Assembly (NCBI GenBank): GCA_037131575.1
Contig: JBAXQV010000001.1
Location: 1 to 47,104 of the forward strand
Direction: 5' to 3'
From: Actinomycetota bacterium
GTDB lineage: Bacteria > Actinomycetota > Acidimicrobiia > Acidimicrobiales > Ilumatobacteraceae
DNA length: 47,104 nucleotides
Shown piece after piece: positions 11,405 through 46,365 of this stretch. Below the pieces are notes generated by a model. The model saw only the letters and a list, made by a program, of their open reading frames with translations, made no database searches and was not told where the DNA came from. The number at the start of each line of letters is the position of its first letter. Position 1 is the stretch's first letter. The position numbers and the translations under genes were made by a program.

Positions 11405-12607
11405 ATGGCTGACAACGTCTGGATCCTCGGAATCACGATGACCAAGTTCGGCAAGCACACCGACAAAGACATCGTCGACCTCGCTGCAGAGGCTGCAATG
11501 GGCGCGCTCGCCGATGCGGGCGTCACCATGGGGCAGATGGGCATCCTCGCTGCCGGCAACCTCATGGGTGGCGGTGGTATCGGCCAGCAGATCCAGAAGC
11601 AGGTCGGCCAAACCGGTATTCCCGTGTACAACGTGTCGAATGCCTGTGCCACAGGTGCCACCGCGCTGCGCACGGTCATCATGGCCATCAAGGCGGGCGA
11701 GTGCGACATGGGGCTCGCCGTAGGTGTCGAGAAGTTGGCAGGCGCTGGTCTGCTCGGTGGCGGCGGGCGCGCCAAGACCGACGGCAAGGTGTGGCAGCCC
11801 TCGGGTCGTTACGGCGCTGTGGCCCCCACCGATGGTCGCATCGGCACCGACGCCATGCCTGGCACGTTCGCCCAGGTGGGCATGGAGTACGCCCACAAGT
11901 ACGGCGACGCCACGTTCGAAACCTTCGCCAAGATCAGCGAGAAGAACCACGCTCACTCCACCCTCAACCCGTTGGCGGCCTATTCGAAGCGGTTCACCCT
12001 CGAAGAGATCATGGGCGACATGATGATCGCCTACCCGAATACGCGCCCCATGTGCTCGGCCAACTGCGATGGTGCGGCGGCGGCCGTGGTGGTCAGTGAA
12101 ACCAAGCTGCGCACCCTGTCGCTCGAGCAGCAACGTCGTGCGGTGAAGGTAGCGGCCTCGGTGCTCACAACCGACCCATGGGAAGACGCCTGCCAGATCC
12201 TGCCCAACGTGAACACGCTCACGCGCAATGCCGCCAAACAGGCGTACGAGGCTGCCGGTATCGGCCCCGACGATCTCGACTTGGTGGAACTGCACGACTG
12301 CTTCGCCACCGCCGAACTGGTGCACTACGACAACCTCATGCTGTGCCCCGAAGGCGGTGCGGTCGACTTCTTCGAGTCGGGTGCACCGTGGCGCGATGGC
12401 TCGACGCCGGTGAACGTGAGCGGCGGTCTGCAGAGCAAGGGTCACCCCATCTCGGCCACCGGTATCGCCAACATCTGGGAGATCTGCCATCACCTGCGTG
12501 GTGAGGCCGGCCCGCGCCAGATCGACGGCGCGAAGGTGGGCCTGGCCCATGTCATCGGCCTCGGCTCGGCCTGCGGTATCCACATCCTCGAGGCCTCAGC
12601 CCTCTGA
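11405..12607 (+). CDS. Thiolase-like protein (SCP-x/lipid-transfer thiolase family)
   Basis: 'MADNVWILGITMTKFGKH', 'NACATGA' (active-site Cys context), 'ELHDCFA', C-terminal 'GLGSACGIH'. SD AGGAG upstream of ATG 11405. Confidence 0.85.
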   Translation: MADNVWILGITMTKFGKHTDKDIVDLAAEAAMGALADAGVTMGQMGILAAGNLMGGGGIGQQIQKQVGQTGIPVYNVSNACATGATALRTVIMAIKAGECDMGLAVGVEKLAGAGLLGGGGRAKTDGKVWQPSGRYGAVAPTDGRIGTDAMPGTFAQVGMEYAHKYGDATFETFAKISEKNHAHSTLNPLAAYSKRFTLEEIMGDMMIAYPNTRPMCSANCDGAAAAVVVSETKLRTLSLEQQRRAVKVAASVLTTDPWEDACQILPNVNTLTRNAAKQAYEAAGIGPDDLDLVELHDCFATAELVHYDNLMLCPEGGAVDFFESGAPWRDGSTPVNVSGGLQSKGHPISATGIANIWEICHHLRGEAGPRQIDGAKVGLAHVIGLGSACGIHILEASAL

Positions 12608-13821: not shown

Positions 13822-14457
13822 TCAGACCAGCAGGCCCATCCGCTCGGCCTTGCGCACGGCCGAGGCACGATTGGGCACTTCGAGCTTCTTCAGTAGGTGC
13901 GCCACGTGCGTCTTGATGGTCTCGGTCGACACGTACAGCACACTGGCGATCTCGGCGTTGCTCGAGCCCGAGGCGAGCAGCGACAGCACTTCGAGTTCGC
14001 GCATCGACAGCGAGGGTTGGTCGACGTCTTGCCACGATGTGGCCAACAGGGCGAGTGATTGTTCGTCGAGCACACTGGCACCACTGGCCACCGTGCGCAG
14101 CGAATGTGCCAGCGCGAGTGACGGAGTGTCACTGCAGAGCACACCAACGACACCGGCGTTCACTGCGGCCGACACCATCACCAACTGACGCGAATTCACC
14201 AGCATCACGGCGCGGGCCGAGGTCGACAGGCTGCGCAGCTCGCTCATGAGGGTGCGGCAGGCATCGGGTGAAGCAGGTTCGTCGAGCAACACCACGGCAT
14301 ATGGGTGGTCGGCGAGTGCGGGTGCGGCGTCACCGACGGTGGCCACAGCGGCGATCACATCGAAGTCGGTTTCGGCGGCCAGACGCAGGTGCAATGCCTC
14401 ACGCAGCACACTGTGCTGCTGCACGACCACCAGCGTGATCCGGTCAGTGGGGTTCAT
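13822..14457 (-). CDS. LuxR/NarL-family response regulator with atypical receiver domain
   Basis: C-terminal LuxR HTH 'LSMRELEVLSLLASGSSNAEIASVLYVSTETIKTHVAHLLKKL'. N-terminal receiver-like fold with 'VVVQQH' in place of the acidic DD pair. Confidence 0.8.
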   Translation of the reverse strand: MNPTDRITLVVVQQHSVLREALHLRLAAETDFDVIAAVATVGDAAPALADHPYAVVLLDEPASPDACRTLMSELRSLSTSARAVMLVNSRQLVMVSAAVNAGVVGVLCSDTPSLALAHSLRTVASGASVLDEQSLALLATSWQDVDQPSLSMRELEVLSLLASGSSNAEIASVLYVSTETIKTHVAHLLKKLEVPNRASAVRKAERMGLLV

Positions 14458-14752
14458 GGCAGTAACTGTCCCCGGATGTGCGAAGTGAGCAACCATTCCC
14501 AGAGAATCTCACTTTGAGTGGTGGAGGAATCTCCCCGTGTAGTGGATTGCCCACACCAGTATCCCCGAAACAGGGGATAATCGAAGGGTGTACCTGGGGT
14601 CGGTGCAAATGACTCACCCGGAACTTCCCCCGGGGGATTCGAACGACGAAGCTGACTATGTCGACGGCGCATGCCTGAGACCGAGCAGCACAAGTGTCCT
14701 CCGCTGGGGGACACACCAAGAGCCCTGGCGGGGCGCGGAGCAGGAGCACACA

Positions 14753-15640
14753 ATGATGGCGGTCACAGAAGTCACCACGCCTCGGGCGGCAGAGGATTAC
14801 GTCGACGGGAACTCCGAACTGTTCCAGCGTCGCCGCCAGTTGCAAGAGCAGCTGGCCGAGCTCGAGCAGAACCAGGGCGATGCCCGGGTGATCAATCGGG
14901 CGAAGCGTTCGCTCGATGATGTGACTGCCGAAATCGTGCGGTTCAACCTCGGCCTGGTGCGCTCGTACTGCAAGCGTTTCACCTCGAACTCGACCCGTGA
15001 AGATTCGGCCGACTTCGAAGCAGCCGGCCTGCTCGGCCTGATGCGGGCCATCGACAGCTTCGACCCGACGCAGGGCCGCTTCGGCCAGTGGGCCTTCAAG
15101 CCCATCCAGCGTGAAGTGCTGCGTGCGGTGCGCGACGCCGATCACCCCAACGTGAACCTCGGCGACTTCGAGCGCCGCCCGGAGATTTTGCGGGCGTTCC
15201 GTCACCTCCAGGGCGACGACACCCGCTACACCCCCTCGTACGCCGAAGTGGCGGCAGTGGTGGGCGCCACCGTCGACCAGGTGCGTCGTGTCATCACCCC
15301 GCCCCGCCTCGAGTCGGTCGACCAGTCCACGTCCGATGATTCTGATGGCACGCTCGGCGACACCATCGAAAGCGCCACCCCTGGCCCCGAGGCCGTGGTG
15401 GTGTCGGGCATGATGCTGTCGGCCCTGCGCACCTACGGGCTCGCAGCGCTCGACCCCCGTGAGCTGTTCGTCATCGTGCGTCGCTTCGGCCTCGACGGTG
15501 AGCCGGCCGAGAAGCTCGCCGGTATCGGCGAAACCCTCGCCCTGTCGCGTGAAGCGATCCGCCAGATCGAAGCCAAGGCCATCGCCAAGATCCAGCACCC
15601 GATGGTGCTGCGCAAGATCCACACCCACGGTCGTCCCTGA
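14753..15640 (+). CDS. RNA polymerase sigma-70 family factor, group 3 (FliA/WhiG/SigB-like)
   Basis: Region 2 'LVRSYCKRF...DFEAAGLLGLMRAIDSFDPTQGRFGQWAFKPIQREV'. Region 4 HTH 'LAGIGETLALSREAIRQIEAKAIAKI'. ATG 14753 is preceded by GGAGCAGGAG. Confidence 0.85.
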   Translation: MMAVTEVTTPRAAEDYVDGNSELFQRRRQLQEQLAELEQNQGDARVINRAKRSLDDVTAEIVRFNLGLVRSYCKRFTSNSTREDSADFEAAGLLGLMRAIDSFDPTQGRFGQWAFKPIQREVLRAVRDADHPNVNLGDFERRPEILRAFRHLQGDDTRYTPSYAEVAAVVGATVDQVRRVITPPRLESVDQSTSDDSDGTLGDTIESATPGPEAVVVSGMMLSALRTYGLAALDPRELFVIVRRFGLDGEPAEKLAGIGETLALSREAIRQIEAKAIAKIQHPMVLRKIHTHGRP

Positions 15641-15678
15641 CCGACTCTGCTGCTCCACGTTCGTTCGCACGAATGTGT

Positions 15679-15716
15679 CAATGGCCGCCGGTTCGCCGGC
15701 GGCCATTGCTCGTTTT
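15679..15716 (+). terminator. Intrinsic terminator of the sigma-factor gene
   Basis: Perfect 13-bp stem CAATGGCCGCCGG/CCGGCGGCCATTG with TTCG loop, followed by CTCGTTTT. Confidence 0.8.
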
Positions 15717-15892
15717 GGTGAGTGGTCGATACGGCCAGCACCGGCCGTGGCACAGCATTTGCCCAGCGTGCACGAGTTTCAGGCGTGATATCCGGGCGAT
15801 CTCCCCGTCACCCGGTTCCCGTCCAGTTCACTCGCCAATCCCCCGTGAAATGGCATCACCAGATCGGCTCTTCCGGACTGTTGATCACGTGA

Positions 15893-15908
15893 GTTCCAAG
15901 GATGGAAC
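15893..15908 (+). promoter_or_regulatory. Leader hairpin presenting AGGA in the loop (candidate CsrA site)
   Basis: GTTCCA-AGGA-TGGAAC. The RNA core CAAGGAUG equals the CARGGAUG core of the CsrA SELEX consensus. It lies 27 nt upstream of ATG 15936, whose SD is GGAGGA. Confidence 0.35.
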
Positions 15909-15935
15909 ACACGGCACACACATCACGGAGGAACC

Positions 15936-16679
15936 ATGGCCCCCCGGTCATTAGAAGCGCCTCCCGAGCCGGTGAGACATTCATCGCTCGGGACATCACC
16001 GCCGCCTACCAAGGCGAAAGGTCAGCCGAAACGGCTGGCCGAGATCTGCAGCCCTTGGGCCGGCAGGCAGTCACCAGCAACATGCCACGAAGAGGCTGCG
16101 CTCATCGAAGAGCTCACCGCACTCGTGGGAGACGACGACACGAACGAGTTTGAACGTCGTGACGTGACTGTGTTGATCACCGCACTGCGCAGCGGTCTCT
16201 CACTTCCTGAAATTCGCGTGCAGGCACCAGGGGTCACCCCGGCCCGTCTGCTTGCGGCTCATCGGGAACTCGAGCGTCGTCGCGCCATCGCCGAAGAGGC
16301 GTGGCGTGTGGTGGAAGCCGAGCCGGGCCGTGAGGCAGTGGTCGACTACGGCATCCTGGCAGGCAAGTTGCTGCCCGCGGTGCTCACTCAGTTGCAGATG
16401 CACATCGACGACGACGAGCGGTTGACCTTCGAGATCGGTCGTGCTGCCGATCAGATCGCCCGTACGTCGCGGCGTGTGCTGATGCTCGAAGACCGAGTCG
16501 CCGACTCGGCCGACGACCCCGAGCGGGCACGTGAACTGGGAACCTTGCTGTACGACGTGTACGGCCACGGTGCCTGGAGCCTCGAGACCTTCCTTCCCCC
16601 TCGGGTAGGAACCCTCGTACCCCTCCGCCTGGCTGCATTGCTGGGCGAAGACCTGACGGCGGTTCGCCGGGTGAGCTGA
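15936..16679 (+). CDS. Hypothetical protein (no recognisable domain)
   Basis: 247-aa ORF. Strong SD (ACGGAGGAACC-ATG). Coding bias is good from about codon 50 onward. The N-terminal ~50 codons have weaker third-position GC and compete with an overlapping frame (15902..16153). Confidence 0.5.
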   Translation: MAPRSLEAPPEPVRHSSLGTSPPPTKAKGQPKRLAEICSPWAGRQSPATCHEEAALIEELTALVGDDDTNEFERRDVTVLITALRSGLSLPEIRVQAPGVTPARLLAAHRELERRRAIAEEAWRVVEAEPGREAVVDYGILAGKLLPAVLTQLQMHIDDDERLTFEIGRAADQIARTSRRVLMLEDRVADSADDPERARELGTLLYDVYGHGAWSLETFLPPRVGTLVPLRLAALLGEDLTAVRRVS

Positions 16680-16730
16680 ATGCTCATTCGACGCGACCTA
16701 CGATCACGGTATGCGAGCTAGCGATCGTCG

Positions 16731-17609
16731 GTGATGGCGGTGCCTGGGCAAACCGAACATACGGCGTGGCTGTTGTTGCCACCCGCAGAGGTTGTGCTCA
16801 GCGCCGCCATCGCACCGACGCCCGATATTCCGCTCGCGTCACTACGCGATGTCGTGGTTCCCATCCACGACGCCGCCGGTGAACTCATCGATTGGACTCT
16901 GGCTCCTGGCGAGATCCAACGCCATGGGCTGGCGCACGACTACGCGTCGTGGCGCCAGACCTGGCGGCGGACCTGGCAGGTGGGGCCCATCACCAATCTG
17001 GTGTCATTGCGTGCCTATGTACGTGAGCTCGACGCCGACCTGGTGGTCGATCTCGACGACGTGTTGGCCCGCACTCTTGCCGCCCACGACGTGGGCGTGT
17101 GGGTGCCCCTCGACCAGTTGGTTCGGCTACGTGATGAGCTGGCAATCACTCGCTTGGCTCTGTCGGTCGACGACCGTACCGGCGTGGGCATCATCGACGA
17201 CATGGCCGACGCAGGGCGCCGAGCCGGCCTGGCTCGCACCTGGGCGGAACCCACTACCGAGGTCATCTTGGCGGCCACTCCCGAAACGGCGGTGATGGTG
17301 CGCCCCAAGGACGATCTGGTGGTGTTGCACGGCGGCCCCGAGTTCGCTTCGTTCGATCATGTCGTGAGCGTCGACATGCGCAACGACCCGGTGATCATCG
17401 GTGATGCGGCGGGTCAGTCGTTCACCCTCGCTGCCGAACTCGCGCGCCCCCTGGCATGGTTGGTGCCGCAGTCGTTGTACTGGCACGTCCGCGCCATTCC
17501 CATCGCCGCCGTGTGGGCGGCTTGGTTTGCTGCGTGGGATGAAGCCATCGGCGTGGCACACGACCTCGAAATCGGCCTCACGGTGAGCAGCCGGTCGTCG
17601 TTCGAATGA
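16731..17609 (+). CDS. Hypothetical protein (no recognisable domain)
   Basis: 292-aa ORF (GTG 16731 or ATG 16734), same strand, 51 nt after the previous ORF. Trp-rich hydrophobic C-terminal segment 'IPIAAVWAAWFAAW'. Confidence 0.5.
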   Translation: MMAVPGQTEHTAWLLLPPAEVVLSAAIAPTPDIPLASLRDVVVPIHDAAGELIDWTLAPGEIQRHGLAHDYASWRQTWRRTWQVGPITNLVSLRAYVRELDADLVVDLDDVLARTLAAHDVGVWVPLDQLVRLRDELAITRLALSVDDRTGVGIIDDMADAGRRAGLARTWAEPTTEVILAATPETAVMVRPKDDLVVLHGGPEFASFDHVVSVDMRNDPVIIGDAAGQSFTLAAELARPLAWLVPQSLYWHVRAIPIAAVWAAWFAAWDEAIGVAHDLEIGLTVSSRSSFE

Positions 17610-17610
17610 C

Positions 17611-18228
17611 GTGTCGGGGGTCGCGGGTGGTGGCGGAGTCACCGTCAAATCACCCGCGGAAATGCGTGCCGAACATGGCGCCGCCGGAGTGCCGGCAGGA
17701 CAGTCTGTACCTGTGTTCGGAGCAAGAAACCTTCAGATCCGCGAGGCCCTCGGTTGCCTCTACGGAGCAATGGCTGCCGTAGTTCGCGACGATCTCGTCG
17801 GCTTCGAACTCCTGGTGGAGGACCTGCGCTTTTCGTTCGAGAATTTCTACGAACTGCTCACCACCATCTCGTTCGCCACGCTCGATCAACTCGATGCCAC
17901 CATCGACGGTTGGCAGCAGCTCACACCCGATGACGGGCGGAGCCTGGCCACCGATCTGTTGTCGTTGGCGAAGCACTACGACATCGCCAGCACCGACGCC
18001 GTGCAAACCGCTGCGTGGTTGCTCGATGCAGTGCGCCGCGGCGACCACAGCCGGGTCATCGCCGACATCGACGGTGCGCGTCGTGTCAGCAGTGACGACG
18101 ACCTCGTCGCCGGTTCCATCGCGTTGCTCACTGCCACGGTGAGCCTGTGGGCACGCCACACGGGCCGCTCCCCTCGCCGTGCCGCAGCCGAGCTGTGCAT
18201 GGGTGCTGCAGTCGACGCTGTTCGCTGA
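17611..18228 (+). CDS. Hypothetical protein (no recognisable domain)
   Basis: 205-aa ORF. The GTG start lies 1 nt after the upstream TGA (17607-17609), implying translational coupling. Predicted mostly helical. Confidence 0.5.
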   Translation: MSGVAGGGGVTVKSPAEMRAEHGAAGVPAGQSVPVFGARNLQIREALGCLYGAMAAVVRDDLVGFELLVEDLRFSFENFYELLTTISFATLDQLDATIDGWQQLTPDDGRSLATDLLSLAKHYDIASTDAVQTAAWLLDAVRRGDHSRVIADIDGARRVSSDDDLVAGSIALLTATVSLWARHTGRSPRRAAAELCMGAAVDAVR

Positions 18229-18297
18229 ATTTTCTGGTTGCCAACCCAGTCGGGTTCCGGACAGTTCCCTGTGTCTACACACCACGGAGGAACACTC

Positions 18298-18633
18298 ATG
18301 GCACCTGGCCGCTCACTCGACGAACTCATCGATCGCACTCCCGATCTTCCCTGGCTCACCAAGGCTGCGTGCGGCGACCTCGAGCTCGATCAGCTCGACC
18401 TGTTCTTCGTGGAAGCCGGCCGCACGATCGCATCGTCGACCGTTGCGCTGTGCCAGAAGTGCCCGGTGCGCCGCGAGTGCCTCGACCACGCCTACCGGCA
18501 CGAGATCATGAGCGGTTACTTCGGTGGTATGTCGCCCGGTCGCCGTCGCGTGCTCAGCCACGAAACGGCCGTAGCCGAGATCGAGCGCGAGATCGCGCTC
18601 AGGTCAGGACACCGAGACGCAGCGCGCGGCTGA
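18298..18633 (+). CDS. WhiB-like (Wbl) iron-sulfur transcription factor
   Basis: Four-Cys pattern 'AACGD...ALCQKCPVRRECL' followed by 'GYFGGMSPGRRR' (G[VI]WGG-like turn plus basic tail). ATG 18298 is preceded by ACGGAGGAAC. Confidence 0.85.
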   Translation: MAPGRSLDELIDRTPDLPWLTKAACGDLELDQLDLFFVEAGRTIASSTVALCQKCPVRRECLDHAYRHEIMSGYFGGMSPGRRRVLSHETAVAEIEREIALRSGHRDAARG

Positions 18634-19297
18634 CAGCGTGAGTTCGGTCGCGGGCATGGAGTTTCTCTTGCACATGAGTGAGATGGGTCTTCACCGTCTC
18701 GGCGCCGATGCCGAGCTGTTCGCCGATCTCGGCGTTGGTGAAGCCTTCGGCAGCGAGGCCGAGCACAGAGAGCTCGCGGGCACTGAGCGGGCGCAGGCTG
18801 CGTCGCTGCTCGCTGGCCTGACGAGTTTGCAGCATCGCGGTGATGGCGCGTGGGTGCATGAACCGCTCTCGGGCGGCCACGGTGCGCACGGCGTTGCCCA
18901 ACGCGTCGACCGAGCACGTCTTCGGCACCACACCCAAGCAACCGTGCTCCACCGATGCCGCCACCGTGGTTGGCGACAGGTCGGATGTGAACACCAGCAC
19001 CGCAGCATCGGGGTGCCCGCCCAACAGGCCGAGCACTTCAGCGAAGGCTGTGCCGCGTCCGCCCATGGTGATCTCGATCATCACTACATCGGGAAGGTGC
19101 TGTTGGTAGGCACGAACCAGACGACGTGGGTCGGTGACGGTGCCACACACGTCGATTCCGAGCGCAGCGAGATACTCGGCCGCCCCACGGGCCGCCACCA
19201 CCTGATCGTCGGCCAGCAGCACCCGCAGCCGAACATCGGGATCAGCCACGAACGAAAGTATAGAGGCACCGTCGCGGTGCTTCCCGATGCCTCCCAC
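18599..19297 (-). CDS. LuxR/NarL-family response regulator with Glu at the phospho-acceptor position
   Basis: Receiver 'RVLLADDQ', 'DVVMIEITMGG', 'VLVFTSD', 'GVVPKT'. C-terminal LuxR HTH 'LSARELSVLGLAAEGFTNAEIGEQLGIGAETVKTHLTHVQEKL'. Alternative GTG start at 19249. Confidence 0.8.
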   Translation of the reverse strand: MGGIGKHRDGASILSFVADPDVRLRVLLADDQVVAARGAAEYLAALGIDVCGTVTDPRRLVRAYQQHLPDVVMIEITMGGRGTAFAEVLGLLGGHPDAAVLVFTSDLSPTTVAASVEHGCLGVVPKTCSVDALGNAVRTVAARERFMHPRAITAMLQTRQASEQRRSLRPLSARELSVLGLAAEGFTNAEIGEQLGIGAETVKTHLTHVQEKLHARDRTHAVSRALRLGVLT

Positions 19298-19326
19298 CAG
19301 GGTCTCGAAACGTCGGGGAGAGCCTC

Positions 19327-20586
19327 GTGACCGGTACGATGGACAACGTGGCGTCGAACATATACCTCGGTCGGCAGCCCATTCTCGATCGTCGCGGCCG
19401 AACCTATGCGTTCGAACTGCTCTATCGCGATGGCGACCAGAACCAGGCGTTCTTCGCCAACCCCGACGACGCCACTCGACGAGTCATCGAGGCCGCCATC
19501 ATCGAATGGGGCTTCGATCGGCTCATCGGCGATCGGCTCGGTTTCATCAACGCAGCCGGCGGCTTGTTGCACACCGGCCTGCTGTCGATCCTTCCGGTCG
19601 ATCGCACCATCGTCGAAGTGCTCGAGCACGTGTTGCTCGATGCCGAGATGGTGCAGGTCATCAGAGACGCGTACGCCACCGGGTTGCGGTTCGCACTCGA
19701 CGACGTAGTCGATCTCGATCGGCCAGGCCTCACCGACATCGCTCCGCTCATCGATGTGGTGAAACTCGATGTGCTGGCCATCCCCACCGACGACCTGGCG
19801 GGCATGGTGGCTCGCAGCCGCGAGATGTTCCCCAAGGCCCTTCTCTTGGCCGAGAAGGTGGAAGACCCCGCCAAGTACGCGGCGTGCATGCACTTGGGGT
19901 TCGACCTGTTTCAGGGCTACTTCTTCGCCAAACCCGAACTGCTCGAGCGCTCGGGCCGGCCCAACAACGTGTCGACAGCCATTTTGCTGTTGGCCGAAGT
20001 GAGCCGGGCCGATGTGGAGATCGACCGTGTCGAGTCGCTCATCTCGGCCGATCCCAGCCTGGCCTACGCCATCTTGCGCCTCGTGAACTCGAGTTCATTC
20101 GGTTTGAACGTGCGGGTCCAGTCGATCAGGCACGCCATCGTGATGGTGGGCTTCGTGCAGGTACGCCAACTCGCCGTACTGCTCACCATGGCCAAGAACA
20201 ATCGGGCCATCAGCGATGAGGTCATCGTGCTGGCCGCAGCACGGGCCCAGATGGCGTCGAAGTTCGCTGCACAGCCCGATGGCGGCGTCGCGGCCGACCC
20301 GGCAGGTGCATTCACCACCGGCCTGCTGTCGGTCATCGACACTGTGTTCGGTGCGCCCATGGACGAGCTACTCACTGGTCTTCCGCTTCCCGCCGATGTG
20401 CGCTCGGCACTGCTCGAGCAGAGCGGTCCGCTGGGCAAGGTGATGGATGCCGTGTATGCGTTCGAACAGGCCGATACGGACACGCTCGAACAGCTCATGC
20501 CCGGCCAGGGCGAATTCATCCGCGAGGTGTACGCCGCCAGCGTTGCGTGGGCCGAGAGCGTGAGGCGCGAGCTCCTCACCACCTGA
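19327..20586 (+). CDS. EAL-HDOD domain signalling protein (COG3434-like)
   Basis: 'YLGRQPILDRRGRTYAFELLYR' and 'AEKVEDP...GFDLFQGYFFAKP' (EAL fold). C-terminal HDOD block 'ILRLVNSSSFGLNVRVQSIRHAIVMVGFVQVRQLA'. Alternative ATG at 19339. Confidence 0.85.
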   Translation: MTGTMDNVASNIYLGRQPILDRRGRTYAFELLYRDGDQNQAFFANPDDATRRVIEAAIIEWGFDRLIGDRLGFINAAGGLLHTGLLSILPVDRTIVEVLEHVLLDAEMVQVIRDAYATGLRFALDDVVDLDRPGLTDIAPLIDVVKLDVLAIPTDDLAGMVARSREMFPKALLLAEKVEDPAKYAACMHLGFDLFQGYFFAKPELLERSGRPNNVSTAILLLAEVSRADVEIDRVESLISADPSLAYAILRLVNSSSFGLNVRVQSIRHAIVMVGFVQVRQLAVLLTMAKNNRAISDEVIVLAAARAQMASKFAAQPDGGVAADPAGAFTTGLLSVIDTVFGAPMDELLTGLPLPADVRSALLEQSGPLGKVMDAVYAFEQADTDTLEQLMPGQGEFIREVYAASVAWAESVRRELLTT

Positions 20587-20624
20587 CCGGTGGCCGCTAC
20601 GCGCTCACCGGTACCCGCGAGCGG

Positions 20625-21155
20625 TTACTGCATCACGAATTCGACGAAGAACACTCCGTACACCTCTTCGGGGTATTCCTCGCTCAGCCGCTCGACGAGC
20701 AGCTTTCGGGCCTCTTCACGGCCCTCTGCTGTGGCGAGCGTGCTCATCGAACTCCCCGACAGCGTCGACACGATGATGTCTTTGGCAGGAGCCTTCTGGA
20801 ACGGCTCGGCACCGGCACCTTCAGCTGCGCCCGCAGCGGCGATCACTACATCGGGGCAGAGGTTCAGCGACACGGCCACGCTGAGGTAGTGACCGTCCGC
20901 GAGGTTGAGGTTCATCTTCTCGAGGTCGAGCACATTCGGCTCTGCCGTGGTGGCGTCGGTGCCCTCTTTGCAGCCGACCAACTGCACGATGGTGGTGGTG
21001 GTGGCCGTACCTGCAGCGGCGGAACCGCCGCCTCCGAGCTTGTAGCCGGCGCCGGCGAGTATCACGCACAGCACCACGACCATGATCAGCTTCTTCTTCG
21101 ACTTTTTGCCTTCGCCTTCGCCTTCAGCGGCGGGAGCTTCTTTTTTCTTGCCCAT
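20625..21155 (-). CDS. fliL: Flagellar basal body-associated protein FliL
   Basis: Lys-rich N-terminus, single TM 'LIMVVVLCVILAGAGY', FliL-type C-terminal domain ('NLNLADGHYLSVAVSL...FVEFVMQ'). Follows motB. Confidence 0.8.
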   Translation of the reverse strand: MGKKKEAPAAEGEGEGKKSKKKLIMVVVLCVILAGAGYKLGGGGSAAAGTATTTTIVQLVGCKEGTDATTAEPNVLDLEKMNLNLADGHYLSVAVSLNLCPDVVIAAAGAAEGAGAEPFQKAPAKDIIVSTLSGSSMSTLATAEGREEARKLLVERLSEEYPEEVYGVFFVEFVMQ

Positions 21156-21177
21156 GGTGATGATCCGTCATGTCGAG

Positions 21178-21197
21178 TCTCTCCGTCCCTGGAGAGA
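21178..21197 (-). promoter_or_regulatory. fliL leader hairpin presenting AGGGAC in the loop (candidate CsrA site)
   Basis: On the minus strand UCUCUCC-AGGGAC-GGAGAGA (7-bp stem). CAGGGA fits CARGGA. It lies 22 nt upstream of the fliL ATG, whose SD region is ACGGAU. Confidence 0.3.
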
Positions 21198-21290
21198 GTG
21201 GTGAGAAGAACTGTCCGGTGTGAGAGGGCGCCGCGCAAGAAACCTCGACGTCGAACTGACCTCGCCTGCACGAGATTTCTCGGCGGGTGG

Positions 21291-22202
21291 TCAGGCCCCG
21301 CTGCCCACGTTCGCCGCGGCATTGATGACCGGTTGCAACGAAATGTCGGTGAGCACCACGATCTCGACGCGTCGGTTCTTGGCGCGGCCTTCGGGCGTGT
21401 TGTTGTCGCCCACCGGGCGGTTCTCGCCGTAGCCAGCCACCGCCAGACGGGTGGGCTCGATGCCCCCGTCCTGGAAGAACTTACGCACCGAGTTGGCGCG
21501 CTCCGACGACAGGCTCCAGTTCGACGAATACCTCGACGTCAAGATCGGCTGCGAGTCGGTGTACCCCTCGACCGAGATGTTGTTGGGGATGTTCTTCAAC
21601 GCGTCGCCAATGGGTTTCAGCACCATCCAACTGTTGGTCTCGAGGGTTGCCGAACCAGGCGCGAAGAGTACGGCATCGCTCAGCACCGTCACCACCAAGC
21701 CGCGGCCTTCGATCTTGAAGTCGAGGCCCTGCCCGAGGCCGGCGATGTTCGAGTTGGTCTTCAGCGTTTCCTCGAACTCCTGGAGCTTCTTGATCTCGTC
21801 CTGGGCGGCCTTCAGATCGTGCTGCTGACGCGCCTGCTCGATCTGCATGTCGGTGGGTTTCGTCGGTGCCGGCGGCTTCTCCGCGTTGAAGATGCCGTCA
21901 CCACCCTGCATCGGCGTGCTGCCGCTGCTGCCCTGGTTGATCTGCACCACCTGCGCCGATGAGCCGCCGCCGAATTCGTGGCGCATGCTCTCGGCAAGCT
22001 TCTTCAGCTTCTCCATGTCGACGCGGCCGGTGGCGAAGAGCGCCAAAAACATCACCATGAGCAGCGTCAACATGTCGGCGTAGGGAATCACCCACGCCTC
22101 ATGGTTCACGTGCTCTTCGTGTTCTTCGTGTTCCTCATGCTTCTTGTGACCGCCGCCGTGGCCTCCGCCGCCGTGGCCGCCGCCACCGCCGCCACTAGCC
22201 AC
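21291..22202 (-). CDS. motB: Flagellar stator protein MotB (OmpA-like)
   Basis: 'AWVIPYADMLTLLMVMFLALFA' plug/TM segment with the conserved Asp. C-terminal OmpA-like 'VEGYTDS...NWSLSSERANSV...NRRVEIVV'. The GTG start overlaps the motA stop by 8 nt. Confidence 0.9.
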   Translation of the reverse strand: MASGGGGGGHGGGGHGGGHKKHEEHEEHEEHVNHEAWVIPYADMLTLLMVMFLALFATGRVDMEKLKKLAESMRHEFGGGSSAQVVQINQGSSGSTPMQGGDGIFNAEKPPAPTKPTDMQIEQARQQHDLKAAQDEIKKLQEFEETLKTNSNIAGLGQGLDFKIEGRGLVVTVLSDAVLFAPGSATLETNSWMVLKPIGDALKNIPNNISVEGYTDSQPILTSRYSSNWSLSSERANSVRKFFQDGGIEPTRLAVAGYGENRPVGDNNTPEGRAKNRRVEIVVLTDISLQPVINAAANVGSGA

Positions 22203-23474: not shown

Positions 23475-24023
23475 GTGAGGCCGTATCGGGCGGGGCTACC
23501 TGCGGTTTCGACGCGACTCCGGACTGTCAATGTCGTGGAGCCGGCTGAAGACCTGTCGCAACAACTCTGGACAATGCGCGAGTTACTCGAGCAGATGGTC
23601 TACAAGCTCGAAATGCAGGGCTTGCTTCTGGCTGCCGGGCGTACCCGCTGGATGCCAACGCTCAACGGCGAGATCGAGACGTTGATGGAGGCAGTGAACG
23701 CCGTCGATGCTGCTCGTGGCCAGGCGTCTGCTCGGTTGGCACGGAAGTACGGCTTGCCCCCCACCGTGAGCCTCACCGACCTGCTCCAGTACGTCGAGCA
23801 CCCGTGGGGCCAGTTGTTGGCGCAACACCGGTTGCAACTCCGTTCGCTGCAGAGCGAGATCGAAGACGTGTCGAGCGCCAACCAGGAACTCGCACGCCGT
23901 GGCCTGATGCGCTCGCGTGAAATCATCGCCAGCCTCGGCGACCACAGTGTCGACGTCTACAACCCGCGTGGGTACACCGCGCCGCTCACCGTTTCGGCGT
24001 TGCGCCTGGATCGGACGGTCTGA
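23475..24023 (+). CDS. flgN: FlgN-like flagellar export chaperone
   Basis: Helical protein with a FlgN-like pattern ('MRELLEQMVYKLEMQGLLLAAG...NQELARRGL'), located directly upstream of flgK-flgL. Start uncertain (GTG 23475, GTG 23535 or ATG 23574). Confidence 0.55.
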   Translation: MRPYRAGLPAVSTRLRTVNVVEPAEDLSQQLWTMRELLEQMVYKLEMQGLLLAAGRTRWMPTLNGEIETLMEAVNAVDAARGQASARLARKYGLPPTVSLTDLLQYVEHPWGQLLAQHRLQLRSLQSEIEDVSSANQELARRGLMRSREIIASLGDHSVDVYNPRGYTAPLTVSALRLDRTV

Positions 24024-26429: not shown

Positions 26430-26711
26430 TCAGCGGTGGTCTTCGCCGGTCACTTCGGCCACGATCGCCCGCATCGTGGCGGTGACGAGCACCTTGTTGA
26501 TGATGCCGAGGGCGATCCACACGATGAAGGCCACGCCGAACGAGCGGATGAGGGCGAAGTCGACGCCCACACTCGACGACACGGCGTCGATGAGCTTCGA
26601 ACCCGTGAGCAGCGCCGAGACAGCGACCACGATGGCCAGCCGCCATGGGGCGAGTGGCCCGGGAAGGCGTTCGGCTTTGGCGGCCTTCTTGCTCACGCCT
26701 GAGCCTCCCAT
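26430..26711 (-). CDS. Small membrane protein, last gene of the flhA operon
   Basis: 93 aa with two hydrophobic segments ('WRLAIVVAVSALL', 'FGVAFIVWIALGII'). ATG 26711 has a GAGG SD. The alternative GTG 26696 overlaps the upstream stop as GTGA. Confidence 0.5.
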   Translation of the reverse strand: MGGSGVSKKAAKAERLPGPLAPWRLAIVVAVSALLTGSKLIDAVSSSVGVDFALIRSFGVAFIVWIALGIINKVLVTATMRAIVAEVTGEDHR

Positions 26712-27853
26712 TCGGCTTCTGCCTCGACCTCTTGCTGGTCAGCGGTACGCAGCACCACTCGCACCGATACGCGGCGCACACCGTCTTCACGGGTGAGCGA
26801 CTCGATGAGCTGGTCGGTGGCGGCAACGGCGAGTTCCACCTGGCGTTGGGCCAGCGCCGATGTTTCGGTTGCAGTGGGGCTCACGATGGTGTCGATGAGT
26901 TCGACCGTCCGTGCGGCTGCCTCGGTTGCAGGGGTTTGCGAGAACGTCATGATTCGCGAGCCGACGGCGGGAAGCGAGGCCGTGCCGGGTTCGCTGGTGG
27001 CAGTGTCGCCGGTGGCCAGTTCGGTCGTGGCCAGTTCGGTAATGGCCAGTTCGGTCGTGTCGGTGACCGCCTCCGACATGCGTGCGGCCTCAGCGTCGGC
27101 GTCGGCACGGCGCTGCTTGATGGTCGACAACACGCGCGGTGAGGCAGTGAGTGCCTGCAGTTCCTCGATGATGCTCTCCACGCGCAACAGGCTCGGCGAC
27201 GCTTCCACCGCGGGTTGTGCCGGTTCGACGTCGACGATCGGTGTCGCCGACGCACGCGAACCCACGGTATGAGCTGTTGCCCGGTCGACCCGCTCGAATG
27301 TGGCGGGTTGCACCGAGCGGCGCAGTTCATCGGTGAGTTGTTGACGGCGCACTTCCACCGATTCGCGTTGTTCGATGGGAACGTAGGCGTCGATCGCCAT
27401 GTTGGGACTTCCCACCAGGTCGTAGTCGCTCGGCGGCTCGTACCACGATGCCGGTTCCTGGCGCAGTTGCGCCCGGCTCTCGGTGCGTGAGGCAGCACCC
27501 GACATTGCCATGCGCTGGCTGGTGAGCTGGCTGGTGTCGACTGCCGCGTCGTCGAGGCCGAGTCGTGCCCGCGCCTCGTCGCGATCGGCTTCCCACTGGG
27601 CCCGCTCGTCGGTGCCCGACGAGTTGATCAGCCGTTCGAGCGCGTCTTCGATGGTCTCGCTTTCAAGCGTCACCTCCACTTCGATGCCGAGGTCGGCGGC
27701 GAAAAAGCCGCCGATGCCACCGCGGCGGATGCGGTGGGCGGCGATCACCTTCACGCGCGAGCCGAGCGACTGCTCGGCCAGGGCGACGGCATCTTCAAGG
27801 GTGGGGCCGCGGAACTTCATCGTGTCGGAACGGTCAGTTGTTTGCGTACGCAT
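26693..27853 (-). CDS. FlhF N-terminal-domain-like protein lacking an SRP-type GTPase domain
   Basis: 'MKFRGPTLEDAVALAEQSLGSRVKVIAAHRIRRGGIGGFF...IEVEV' resembles the FlhF N-terminal region, and the gene sits directly after flhA. No Walker A/G1-G4 motif anywhere in the 386 aa. ATG 27853 has a GAGGAG SD inside the flhA 3' end. Confidence 0.5.
   Translation of the reverse strand: MRTQTTDRSDTMKFRGPTLEDAVALAEQSLGSRVKVIAAHRIRRGGIGGFFAADLGIEVEVTLESETIEDALERLINSSGTDERAQWEADRDEARARLGLDDAAVDTSQLTSQRMAMSGAASRTESRAQLRQEPASWYEPPSDYDLVGSPNMAIDAYVPIEQRESVEVRRQQLTDELRRSVQPATFERVDRATAHTVGSRASATPIVDVEPAQPAVEASPSLLRVESIIEELQALTASPRVLSTIKQRRADADAEAARMSEAVTDTTELAITELATTELATGDTATSEPGTASLPAVGSRIMTFSQTPATEAAARTVELIDTIVSPTATETSALAQRQVELAVAATDQLIESLTREDGVRRVSVRVVLRTADQQEVEAEAEWEAQA
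27013..27057. repeat. 3 x 15-bp tandem repeat inside the FlhF-like gene
   Basis: TGGCCAGTTCGGT(CG/AA) x3. It encodes (T/I)TELA x3 on the minus strand. Confidence 0.85.
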
Positions 27854-29993: not shown

Positions 29994-30085
29994 GGACGAT
30001 CACAACTGTTCGCAGCAAGCGTCGATTGTCGTGAAGGTGTCTCTCGATCCACGAGGGCGTTCGGCGCAGCAGACAGGAGGTCACC

Positions 30086-30553
30086 ATGCTGCTAGAAACC
30101 ACAAGATTCGGTGTCGTCGAGGTCGACGAGGCCGAGGTGTACGCGGTGCCGGGAGGTATTCCCGGTTTCCCCGAGATGAAGCGAGTTGCTCTGCTCGGTG
30201 CAGGCAACGTGCCCGGTCATCCGCCGCTCGAGAATCAGCATTCGTTGTACTGGATGCACGATCTCGACGATGAGAACCTGGCATTCATGTGCGTCGTGCC
30301 GTGGGTTGCATTCCCCGAGTACGACTTCGACATCGACGACGAAACCCTCGGTGTCGAGGATCTCGCCGATGTGCGTGTGCTCACCCTTGTGAGCGTGCGT
30401 CGTGAGGACGGTGTGGGGCAACTCACCACCAACCTGCGGGCGCCCATCGTGGTCGACACACGCAAACAGCGGCTCCAGCAGATCATCCTCAACGATTCGC
30501 GTTGGCCCATCCGGGCGCTGGTGACCGTCCTCGTGTCCACCGAGGTGCGGTGA
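30086..30553 (+). CDS. fliW: Flagellar assembly factor FliW
   Basis: '[23 protein letters not shown]...[19 protein letters not shown]...[20 protein letters not shown]' matches the FliW family. SD AGGAGG. Followed by csrA. Confidence 0.9.
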
Positions 30554-30807
30554 TGTTGGTCTTGGCTCGCCGCGTCGGCGAGAACATCCGTATCGGAGAC
30601 GACATCATCGTGACCGTCCTCGAATTGAGCCGCGACCAGGTGCGCATCGGTATCCGCGCCCCCCGGTCGGTGACCGTGCACCGCGAAGAGGTGTACGAGG
30701 AGATCATGGCTGCCAACCGTGAAGCCGCCGGCCCATCAGCCGACGACTTGGTAGGCGTGGCCGGAGTGATCATGCCGGTCATCGGCGGACTGCCAACTCG
30801 CAAGTAG
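30553..30807 (+). CDS. csrA: Carbon storage regulator CsrA (RNA-binding translational regulator)
   Basis: '[51 protein letters not shown]' is the canonical CsrA fold sequence. The ATG overlaps the fliW stop (TGATG). About 30-aa C-terminal extension. Confidence 0.9.
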
Positions 30808-46268: not shown

Positions 46269-46365
46269 CGCTGCCGCCAAGTGGTGATCGTCACAGTGAC
46301 AACAGTCCTGAATGTTGCCGATGTGCAAGCAGGTTCTTCGGCGTCACGCTGGAGGACGACGTCGT

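Follow-up and report, generated by a model that had tools for sequence, protein, structure and literature searches.

A predicted two-site CsrA operator ahead of a conserved regulatory cassette in a flagellar locus of Acidimicrobiia

The work described here concerns the 5' leader of a gene starting at position 15936 (hereafter gene 15936) in a window of 47,104 nucleotides (nt), viz. positions 1 to 47,104 of the forward strand of contig JBAXQV010000001.1 (assembly GCA_037131575.1), which has a G+C content of 65% and originates from a freshwater representative of the class Acidimicrobiia. Gene 15936 (15936..16679, + strand) codes for an all-helical protein of 247 amino acids (aa) of unknown function and it heads a conserved cassette of genes. 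In its leader, a short hairpin presenting A-N-GGA in the loop is followed by a second A-N-GGA within the Shine-Dalgarno (SD) sequence, and this arrangement, which is present in all of the 25 orthologous leaders that were compared, recurs before fliL and before flagellin genes of the same lineage. Based on these sequence patterns, it appears rather probable that CsrA represses the translation of gene 15936 via this leader.

The hairpin and Shine-Dalgarno sites in orthologous leaders

In the window, the core of the stem-loop, GUUCCA-AGGA-UGGAAC, lies at 15893-15908 (+), with its arms GTTCCA (15893-15898) and TGGAAC (15903-15908) enclosing the loop AGGA (15899-15902), and together with an outer helix, CGUG/CACG, which flanks the core, the structure spans 15888..15913, near the predicted 5' end of the transcript. 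The sequence A-A-GGA (15898-15902, +) of the loop is the proposed high-affinity CsrA site, and CAAGGAUG at 15897-15904 matches CARGGAUG. The SD, GGAGGA at 15927-15932, is located 3 nt before the ATG at 15936, and it forms part of ACGGAGGA (15925..15932, +), which also constitutes the second A-N-GGA site, located 27 nt downstream of the GGA in the loop. The preliminary description of this DNA, made from its letters alone, had placed three elements in the leader, viz. CCGGACTGT, the hairpin and the SD, and had reported the match to CARGGAUG as well as a csrA-fliW pair 14 kb away. All three elements are found at the positions given there, the match agrees, and the pair is located 14.1-14.6 kb downstream of the leader; the interpretation of CCGGACTGT has, however, changed, as discussed later.

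If the hairpin was known from the window only, then it would count as a coincidence, as the counts of the motifs in a single sequence are at chance level, and due to this the case made here rests on comparison. Under a more restrictive rule, the hairpin holding A-N-GGA in its loop must have a stem of 5 bp or longer, another A-N-GGA must follow 18-32 nt downstream, and a start codon must lie a further 4-16 nt on. This rule gave only two matches in 94 kb (both strands of the window), whereas 0.58 +/- 0.74 were expected, and both matches are at true starts of genes of the flagellar locus, viz. 15936 and fliL (21155). A search of the whole window against Rfam 15 gave no family match at the gathering score, and no small RNA (sRNA) of the Csr type was found in it.

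The comparison set consisted of 25 orthologous leaders from metagenome-assembled genomes of Ilumatobacteraceae and Acidimicrobiaceae, which are the closest relatives of the window genes; the relatives' sequences or contigs are referred to below by labels of the type L001. A hairpin is present at the equivalent place in 25 of the 25 leaders, with a stem of 4-9 bp and a loop of 3-8 nt, and it occurs in 18 distinct versions, in which the pairing is retained as the stems change. The stems include GUUCCA/UGGAAC (in the window), UCCCCA/UGGGGA, UCUCC/GGAGA, GUCUUUCCA/UGGAGAGAC, CGCA/UGCG, GCCAC/GUGGC, ACCAC/GUGGU and GCCACAU/AUGUGGC, the pairs extending them vary between A-U, G-C and C-G, and in L001 (UCUCC/GGAGG) and L004 the stems are retained by means of G-U pairs. 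In all 25 cases the loop reads A-N-GGA, viz. AAGGA in the window, while the orthologues, most of which have a 7-nt loop, ACGGAUC, show either ACGGA or AUGGA; the loops of L001-L003 are A-N-GGA-C hexaloops. The SD, which reads A[CU]GGA in every leader, lies in an invariant context, TCA[CT]GGAGGA (25/25), surrounded by a variable spacer, and the distance between the GGA of the loop and that of the SD is 22-28 nt in the orthologues. The covariation that the preliminary description had suggested looking for in these leaders is present, and the hairpin/GGA arrangement is missing from none of the 25; its central claim, a GGA in a loop combined with a GGA-containing SD as in CsrA-repressed leaders such as hag and glgC, gains support from these 25 leaders, and also from the recurrence at fliL and flagellin genes and the presence of fliW-csrA on the same contigs, both described in the next section.

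In a fixed register, 78.6% of the cells are paired in comparison to 68.2% in shuffles, a value reached by 0 of 500 shuffles, and the covariation score of 0.209 (0.107 in shuffles) was likewise not reached in any of the 500. The cells changed on both sides number 14, as against 5.0 +/- 1.9 in shuffles (reached by 0/500), but this count overstates the number of independent events, as the orthologues share descent. The remaining two measures, based on the number of pairs and of types of pair, were not above the shuffles (91/500 and 245/500). When the partners are slid by one column, the pairing falls to 34-44%. Since the loop lengths differ between clades, the fixed-register pairing is understated, and a model-based realignment left the register of the minority clades uncorrected, so that the pairing percentage is underestimated. 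The differing loop lengths also account for the failure of RNAalifold, applied to the raw MAFFT alignment, to detect the hairpin. In these leaders the arms of the inverted repeat vary while its asymmetric centre remains constant, a pattern characteristic of an RNA hairpin showing its loop to a reader, and not of a DNA operator.

Recurrence of the module, and the encoded CsrA and FliW

A second copy of the module, consisting of the motif, a hairpin, ACGGA and ATG, is found on the - strand before fliL (21153..21218). Its parts are CCGGACAGT at 21218-21210, the hairpin UCUCUCC-AGGGAC-GGAGAGA at 21197-21178 with a stem of 7 bp, ACGGA at 21168-21164, and the ATG at 21155-21153. The fliL module is kept, with altered stems, in L020 (CCUCCC-ACGGAC-GGGAGG), L022 (CCCUCC-AAGGAC-GGAGGG) and L026 (CCCC-AUGGAC-GGGG), and in the window and in these three relatives the fliL loops are always A-N-GGA-C hexaloops. 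A covariance model (R1) that was built from the leaders of gene 15936 only also recovers the fliL leaders.

The flagellin gene is outside the window, just past its right end, where a contig with an identical fliF has the gene order fliC-fliD-fliS-...-fliH-flgB; in sister contigs (L035:1-5218 and L033:2-1171), four tandem flagellin genes are present past the same end. In three flagellin genes, two from the species of the window and one from another species, a hairpin with the loop ACGGAU[CU] is followed by a GGA-containing SD, which reads CACACGGAGG in L035:1036, CACACGGAAG in L035:2554 and CAACAUGGAGG in L038, those of the two tandem copies being of the ACGGAGG type. The flagellin loop matches the loop of most orthologues of gene 15936, and in L035:1036, where this distance was counted, 28 nt separate the loop GGA from the SD GGA. 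Further, when model R1 was applied to 66.5 kb of new sequence, its top matches were the flagellin leaders, with expectation values (E) of 0.006, 0.046 and 0.35. Flagellin mRNA is an established target of CsrA partnered by FliW (PMC7652899), and due to this the presence of the module on flagellin leaders provides the strongest available argument for CsrA as its reader. As the product of gene 15936 is not a flagellin (a flagellin domain was not found in it) and the flagellin leaders carry the same module, this gene should not be regarded as the canonical flagellin target; rather, it is predicted to be an additional target of CsrA, beside fliL and flagellin.

Hairpins of related form were observed at some other places. 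The flagellin copy adjoining fliD (L035:4001) has, at the equivalent place, the hairpin GUUCCG-UUCG-CGGAAC, which is without A-N-GGA, and this copy may therefore escape control by CsrA. The whiB leader contains a GGA-loop hairpin in some relatives, viz. GUGCCC-AGGAC-GGGCAC in L023 (12415-12490) and GGCACCG-AGGAA-CGGUGCC in L025 (~12190-12289), and such a hairpin is absent from this leader in the window, L020, L022 and L026. A hairpin of the same type, CGCCUC-AUGGAUC-GAGGCG, occurs inside the coding region of fliO (L031:9725-9749, - strand; model R1, E = 0.08).

Both proteins required for a FliW-CsrA system are encoded in the window, by fliW (30086..30553, +; matching the Pfam family FliW, the protein antagonist of CsrA, with 91.6 bits) and csrA (30553..30807, +). 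The latter codes for a protein of 84 aa that passes the equivalog model TIGR00202 (87 bits, cut-off 70), and its C-terminal extension is typical of CsrA proteins controlled by FliW. It is aligned without gaps to RsmE (2jpp) and to E. coli CsrA (1y00), the motifs MLxLxRR and VHREE being the same in all three, and its RNA-binding residues (L2, L4, R6/R7 and V42-H-R44-E-E) are kept. In every contig seen, the fliW stop and the csrA start overlap in TGATG (30551-30555 in the window), which suggests that the translation of the two genes is coupled. The pair is located between flhA and flhB in the window and in L029-L032, and it shares a contig with the gene 15936 orthologue, at the same position, in 3 of the 3 other ortholog-bearing contigs that could be checked. 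A metagenome scan with FliW led to only 2 loci. The leader of fliW itself (29994-30085; also L029-L032) is conserved, and its SD, ACAGGAGG, is a possible autoregulatory site for CsrA.

Probable promoter motif, cassette and flagellar locus

The letters of CCGGACTGT (block B; 15873..15881, +) that are invariant across the 25 leaders are A, C and T (x-A-C-n-n-T) and not GGA. Copies without GGA occur in L017/L022 (GAACAAT), in the fliL copy of L020 and one flagellin (GCACAGT), and in another flagellin (GCACGAT), and the block is without the A at -2 of A-N-GGA. The block B motif is also found upstream of fliL, whiB, flgB, flgN and a response-regulator gene, as well as of fliW in the variant form GGACGAT. 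In the window, (C)CGGAC[AT]GT is located at 14464-14472 (-), 15874-15882 (+), 18258-18266 (+), 21209-21217 (-), 23520-23528 (+) and 46300-46313 (-), with a variant near 30010-30025 (+), and of the six matches to SGGACWGTY, five lie 7-70 nt upstream of a start codon on the same strand. In two of these cases, the motif is found 7-8 nt before the start codon, viz. that of flgN (GTG 23535 in the window; also in L020 and L026) and that of the response-regulator gene (ATG 14457 in the window; also in L022, L023 and L025), and this fixed distance fits leaderless mRNAs for both genes. Due to the loss of GGA with A, C and T being kept, and due to the position of the motif before leaderless starts, CCGGACTGT probably serves as a -10 promoter element, whose A-11 and T-7 would be 15877 and 15881, and is probably not a part of the leader RNA. 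Hence, of the three elements which the preliminary description assigned to the leader, the hairpin and the SD stand, but CCGGACTGT probably does not. If CCGGACTGT is the -10 element, then transcription is predicted to start at 15888..15889 (+), i.e. 7-8 nt after T-7, which is the spacing seen at the leaderless flgN and regulator starts, and the mRNA would then open with the hairpin, its outer helix beginning at +1.

The adjacent sigma-factor gene (14588-15640), directly upstream of gene 15936, is an obvious candidate for the reader of the shared promoter-like motif. Its product belongs to the sigma-70 family, and as it scores 47 bits with the FliA/WhiG model, for which the cut-off is 190, it is no clear member of that group. 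A scan of 15500-16100 for promoters of the sigma-70 type gave no match. A visual comparison of the FliA/sigma-28 consensus (TAAA-N15-GCCGATAA) with the conserved blocks revealed no convincing -35/-10 pair, and this consensus was rejected. The sigma-factor gene is followed, on its 3' side, by a terminator-like hairpin (15679..15708, +) with a 13-pair stem and then a T-run, CTCGTTTTGG, which would part this gene from the promoter of gene 15936. Further, an alignment of 20 upstream regions revealed an array of GGGTGA[CT] / [GA]TCAC(CC) repeats, ~10-11 nt apart, at 15780..15850 (+); such arrays are also present upstream in L005, L009, L010 and L011 and before the flagellin genes of L035 and L038, and they are probably sites at which a transcription factor regulating the flagellar regulon binds.

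Information on transcripts was obtained from assembled lake metatranscriptome contigs (Logan), with a depth of 2-7x, in which assembly loses the transcript ends. These contigs cover 15902-16938 in four runs, beginning at 15902 and 15905, inside the hairpin, and they cross the 16679/16731 gene junction, while none was found over 15300-15900. For L001, RNA contigs from three runs begin at 2973-2978, which is 1-6 nt after the hairpin and 22-27 nt after the equivalent of the predicted start. One contig at whiB begins upstream of the whiB block B. In the same four metatranscriptomes, no contig was found over fliL or motB (20400-21700), and as gene 15936 is covered, the cassette seems to be more expressed than the motor genes in those samples.

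The product of gene 15936 has 69 homologues, down to 40% identity, and since their N-terminus is conserved as M-[SA]-T-R, the ATG at 15936 is taken as the true start. Searches of Pfam and NCBIfam with the 247-aa protein were without a match, and its AlphaFold model, which is all-helical with a pLDDT (predicted local distance difference test) of 76, gave no match with E below 1 against the PDB. The cyclic di-GMP-binding motif of RsiG was not seen by eye in this protein, a comparison which provides a lead only. In the cassette (14588-20586), the sigma-70-family gene and whiB occur together with three genes whose function is unknown (247, 292 and ~170-205 aa); a LuxR-type response regulator stands on either side, and an EAL/HDOD gene comes next. 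In all relatives examined the cassette is located inside the flagellar/chemotaxis locus, and in six further contigs the synteny is kept in the order regulator, sigma, gene 15936 orthologue, two hypotheticals, whiB, regulator and then che or fliL-mot genes.

Based on profile and family matches, the flagellar locus of the window extends from ~13.8 kb to the right end. It starts with a LuxR-type response regulator (13822-14457, - strand), and after the sigma-70-family gene and gene 15936 come two hypothetical genes, whiB (ATG ~18298), the second LuxR-type regulator and the EAL/HDOD gene, followed by fliL-motB-motA-flbD (minus), flgN-flgK-flgL, flhA (minus), fliW-csrA (30086-30807) and then flhB, fliR, fliP, fliO, fliN, fliM, flgE, flgD, fliK, fliI, fliG, fliF, flgC, flgB and fliH. 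Two genes between flgL and flhA (26430-27853, minus), whose position is kept in L022, L026, L029 and L031, are without a family match, bar a faint one of the 386-aa gene to FlhF (E = 4e-4).

Predicted mode of control and its significance

We infer each part of the following mechanism, viz. the transcription start, CsrA as the binder, the repression and its relief by FliW. The mRNA of gene 15936 would begin near 15888 with a two-site CsrA operator, in which site 1, of high affinity, would be the short 5'-proximal stem-loop offering A-N-GGA and site 2 the A-N-GGA within the SD, 27 nt downstream. A single CsrA dimer, made from the csrA gene of the same flagellar locus, would bind the loop and bridge to the SD, and the bound CsrA would then exclude the 30S subunit, by which translation of gene 15936 would be repressed; through coupling or mRNA decay, the repression may extend to the downstream genes. 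When flagellin is exported, FliW would be freed and bind CsrA, and the repression would be lifted. In this manner, the regulatory cassette would be tied to an assembly checkpoint that is common to flagellin and fliL.

The predicted operator can be compared with several known systems. A CsrA dimer can bridge sites that are 10-63 nt apart (PMC7652899), and the GGA spacing of 22-28 nt falls inside this range, as needed for the binding of one dimer. CsrA sites combining a hairpin loop with the SD are known in glgC and hag (PMC7652899). B. subtilis hag resembles the present case in having two GGA sites (BS1 and BS2), one of them over the SD, and in being controlled by a FliW-partnered CsrA with a C-terminal extension whose gene forms fliW-csrA in the flagellar locus, and the flagellin leaders of the present lineage carry the same module. 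However, the present target is an uncharacterised protein in a cassette that ends in whiB, beside a sigma-factor gene, and the host is an actinobacterium, in which the site is predicted from sequence. In E. coli glgC, a short hairpin with GGA in its loop likewise lies just upstream of an SD holding GGA (the spacing being 27 nt here), but four sites are present there as against two conserved ones here, and CsrA is controlled there by the sRNAs CsrB and CsrC, whereas the encoded antagonist here is FliW. Among the high-affinity ligands are the consensus RUACARGGAUGU, obtained by SELEX, and the A-N-GGA-N hexaloop bound by RsmE, and extra letters in the loop can lower the affinity for CsrA (PMC7652899). 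With the SELEX and RsmE-hcnA ligands, the window shares the CARGGAUG of CAAGGAUG and a CsrA aligned gap-free with RsmE 2jpp, and fliL and L001-L003 share the hexaloop, whereas most orthologues have the 7-nt loop ACGGAUC. In C. jejuni, the CsrA regulon, with flaA as the main target, was defined by co-immunoprecipitation (PMC4894983). That network, in which a FliW-controlled CsrA is centred on flagellin mRNA, is similar to the present one, where fliL carries the module too, but the regulon proposed here is defined by conserved sequence and includes a non-flagellar regulatory cassette.

A number of observations weigh against the interpretation that CsrA represses gene 15936 via this leader. GGA-loop hairpins with a stem of at least 5 bp are not enriched in the window (34 observed in comparison to 47.4 +/- 6.6 in shuffles), 17% of all GGA sites can be placed in a hairpin of this kind if G-U pairs are counted, and the minimum free energy of the 15888-15950 fold is unremarkable (z-score of -0.74). 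An SD containing GGA is expected in this phylum regardless of regulation. The RNA contigs are compatible with a transcription start near 15888 without being decisive, and their ends leave room for a start inside the hairpin, 3' of its 5' arm; literature searches found no experimental study of CsrA in Actinobacteria. To these the shared descent of the orthologues, noted above for the covarying cells, should be added.

It is also necessary to consider whether the same features can be explained in other ways. If the hairpin is functional but its partner is not CsrA, then it could be a 5' stem-loop acting against 5'-end-dependent ribonucleases (RNases), or a site for some other RNA-binding protein, with the GGA of the SD being merely an SD. 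The extreme 5' position predicted for the hairpin is the classic place of stabilising stem-loops, and the UUCG loop of the flagellin copy L035:4001 indicates that a hairpin is possible without GGA; however, a stabiliser needs no set loop, yet A-N-GGA is kept in every leader with stems that vary without restriction, fliL and flagellin leaders carry this loop motif too, and the conserved CA[CU] before the SD GGA echoes it. To our knowledge, there is no other GGA-loop-specific protein in this phylum, which also counts against this explanation, and we regard it as unlikely, albeit deserving serious consideration. In another alternative, CsrA binds the leader and, rather than repressing translation, protects the mRNA (activation), as for flhDC, or affects its localisation, as reported for C. 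jejuni flaA. The sites are near the predicted 5' end, and E. coli CsrA, bound at two sites at the 5' end of flhDC, shields this mRNA from RNase E (PMC7652899). However, in all 25 leaders there is an overlap between the second site and the SD, which is the geometry of repression in glgC, cstA and hag, and this alternative is thus considered quite improbable.

The chance is slight that CCGGACTGT is in the RNA after all, either as a third CsrA site or by pairing with the loop (CGGUC with GAUCG) in an alternative structure or pseudoknot. Most of its copies contain GGA, one whiB RNA contig starts upstream of block B, and in the RNAalifold prediction block B was paired with the loop. This pairing was rejected, since only one case of it is truly compensatory and the rest follows clade membership; moreover, the copies in L017/L022, in fliL of L020 and in two flagellins have lost GGA while keeping A..T, the A at -2 of A-N-GGA is lacking, and no leader exists to contain the motif at flgN and the regulator gene, whose start codons follow it by 7-8 nt. 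Finally, the inverted repeat, being near the predicted start, just downstream of the promoter, and adjacent to regulator genes, could be viewed as the DNA operator of a dimeric transcription factor, e.g. a flanking LuxR-type response regulator. However, the half-sites, viz. the arms of the stem, change fully between relatives whereas the asymmetric centre is invariant, the opposite of the pattern of an operator, and the complementarity maintained by G-U pairs in L001 and L004 is meaningful in RNA only, which makes a DNA operator highly improbable.

If repression of gene 15936 by CsrA is accepted, a wider interpretation is plausible but is put forward tentatively, viz. that in flagellated Acidimicrobiia the FliW-CsrA regulon reaches beyond flagellin, with the same operator gating fliL and the cassette, so that completion of the export apparatus would be fed into transcriptional control. 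The cassette in question comprises the 247-aa protein, two unknown proteins and a WhiB-type regulator, beside a sigma-factor gene, and is flanked by the two LuxR-type response regulators.

CsrA partnered by FliW is known above all for repressing the translation of flagellin. As the mechanism proposed here is the textbook one, what is added is a target and a phylum, both new, and not a new principle; if the wider interpretation is true, then, judging from literature searches, no CsrA regulon has been described in Actinobacteria before this one. The signature, consisting of the promoter motif GGACnGT, a 5' hairpin with the loop A-N-GGA and a second A-N-GGA in the SD, allows the flagellar regulon of uncultured relatives to be read from metagenomes. 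The predicted target also gives a functional entry point to four conserved genes, as yet without a known role, of Acidimicrobiia that are abundant in fresh water. In addition, the presence of a conserved non-flagellin target at the head of a regulatory cassette suggests that in this lineage the assembly checkpoint may also control regulators.

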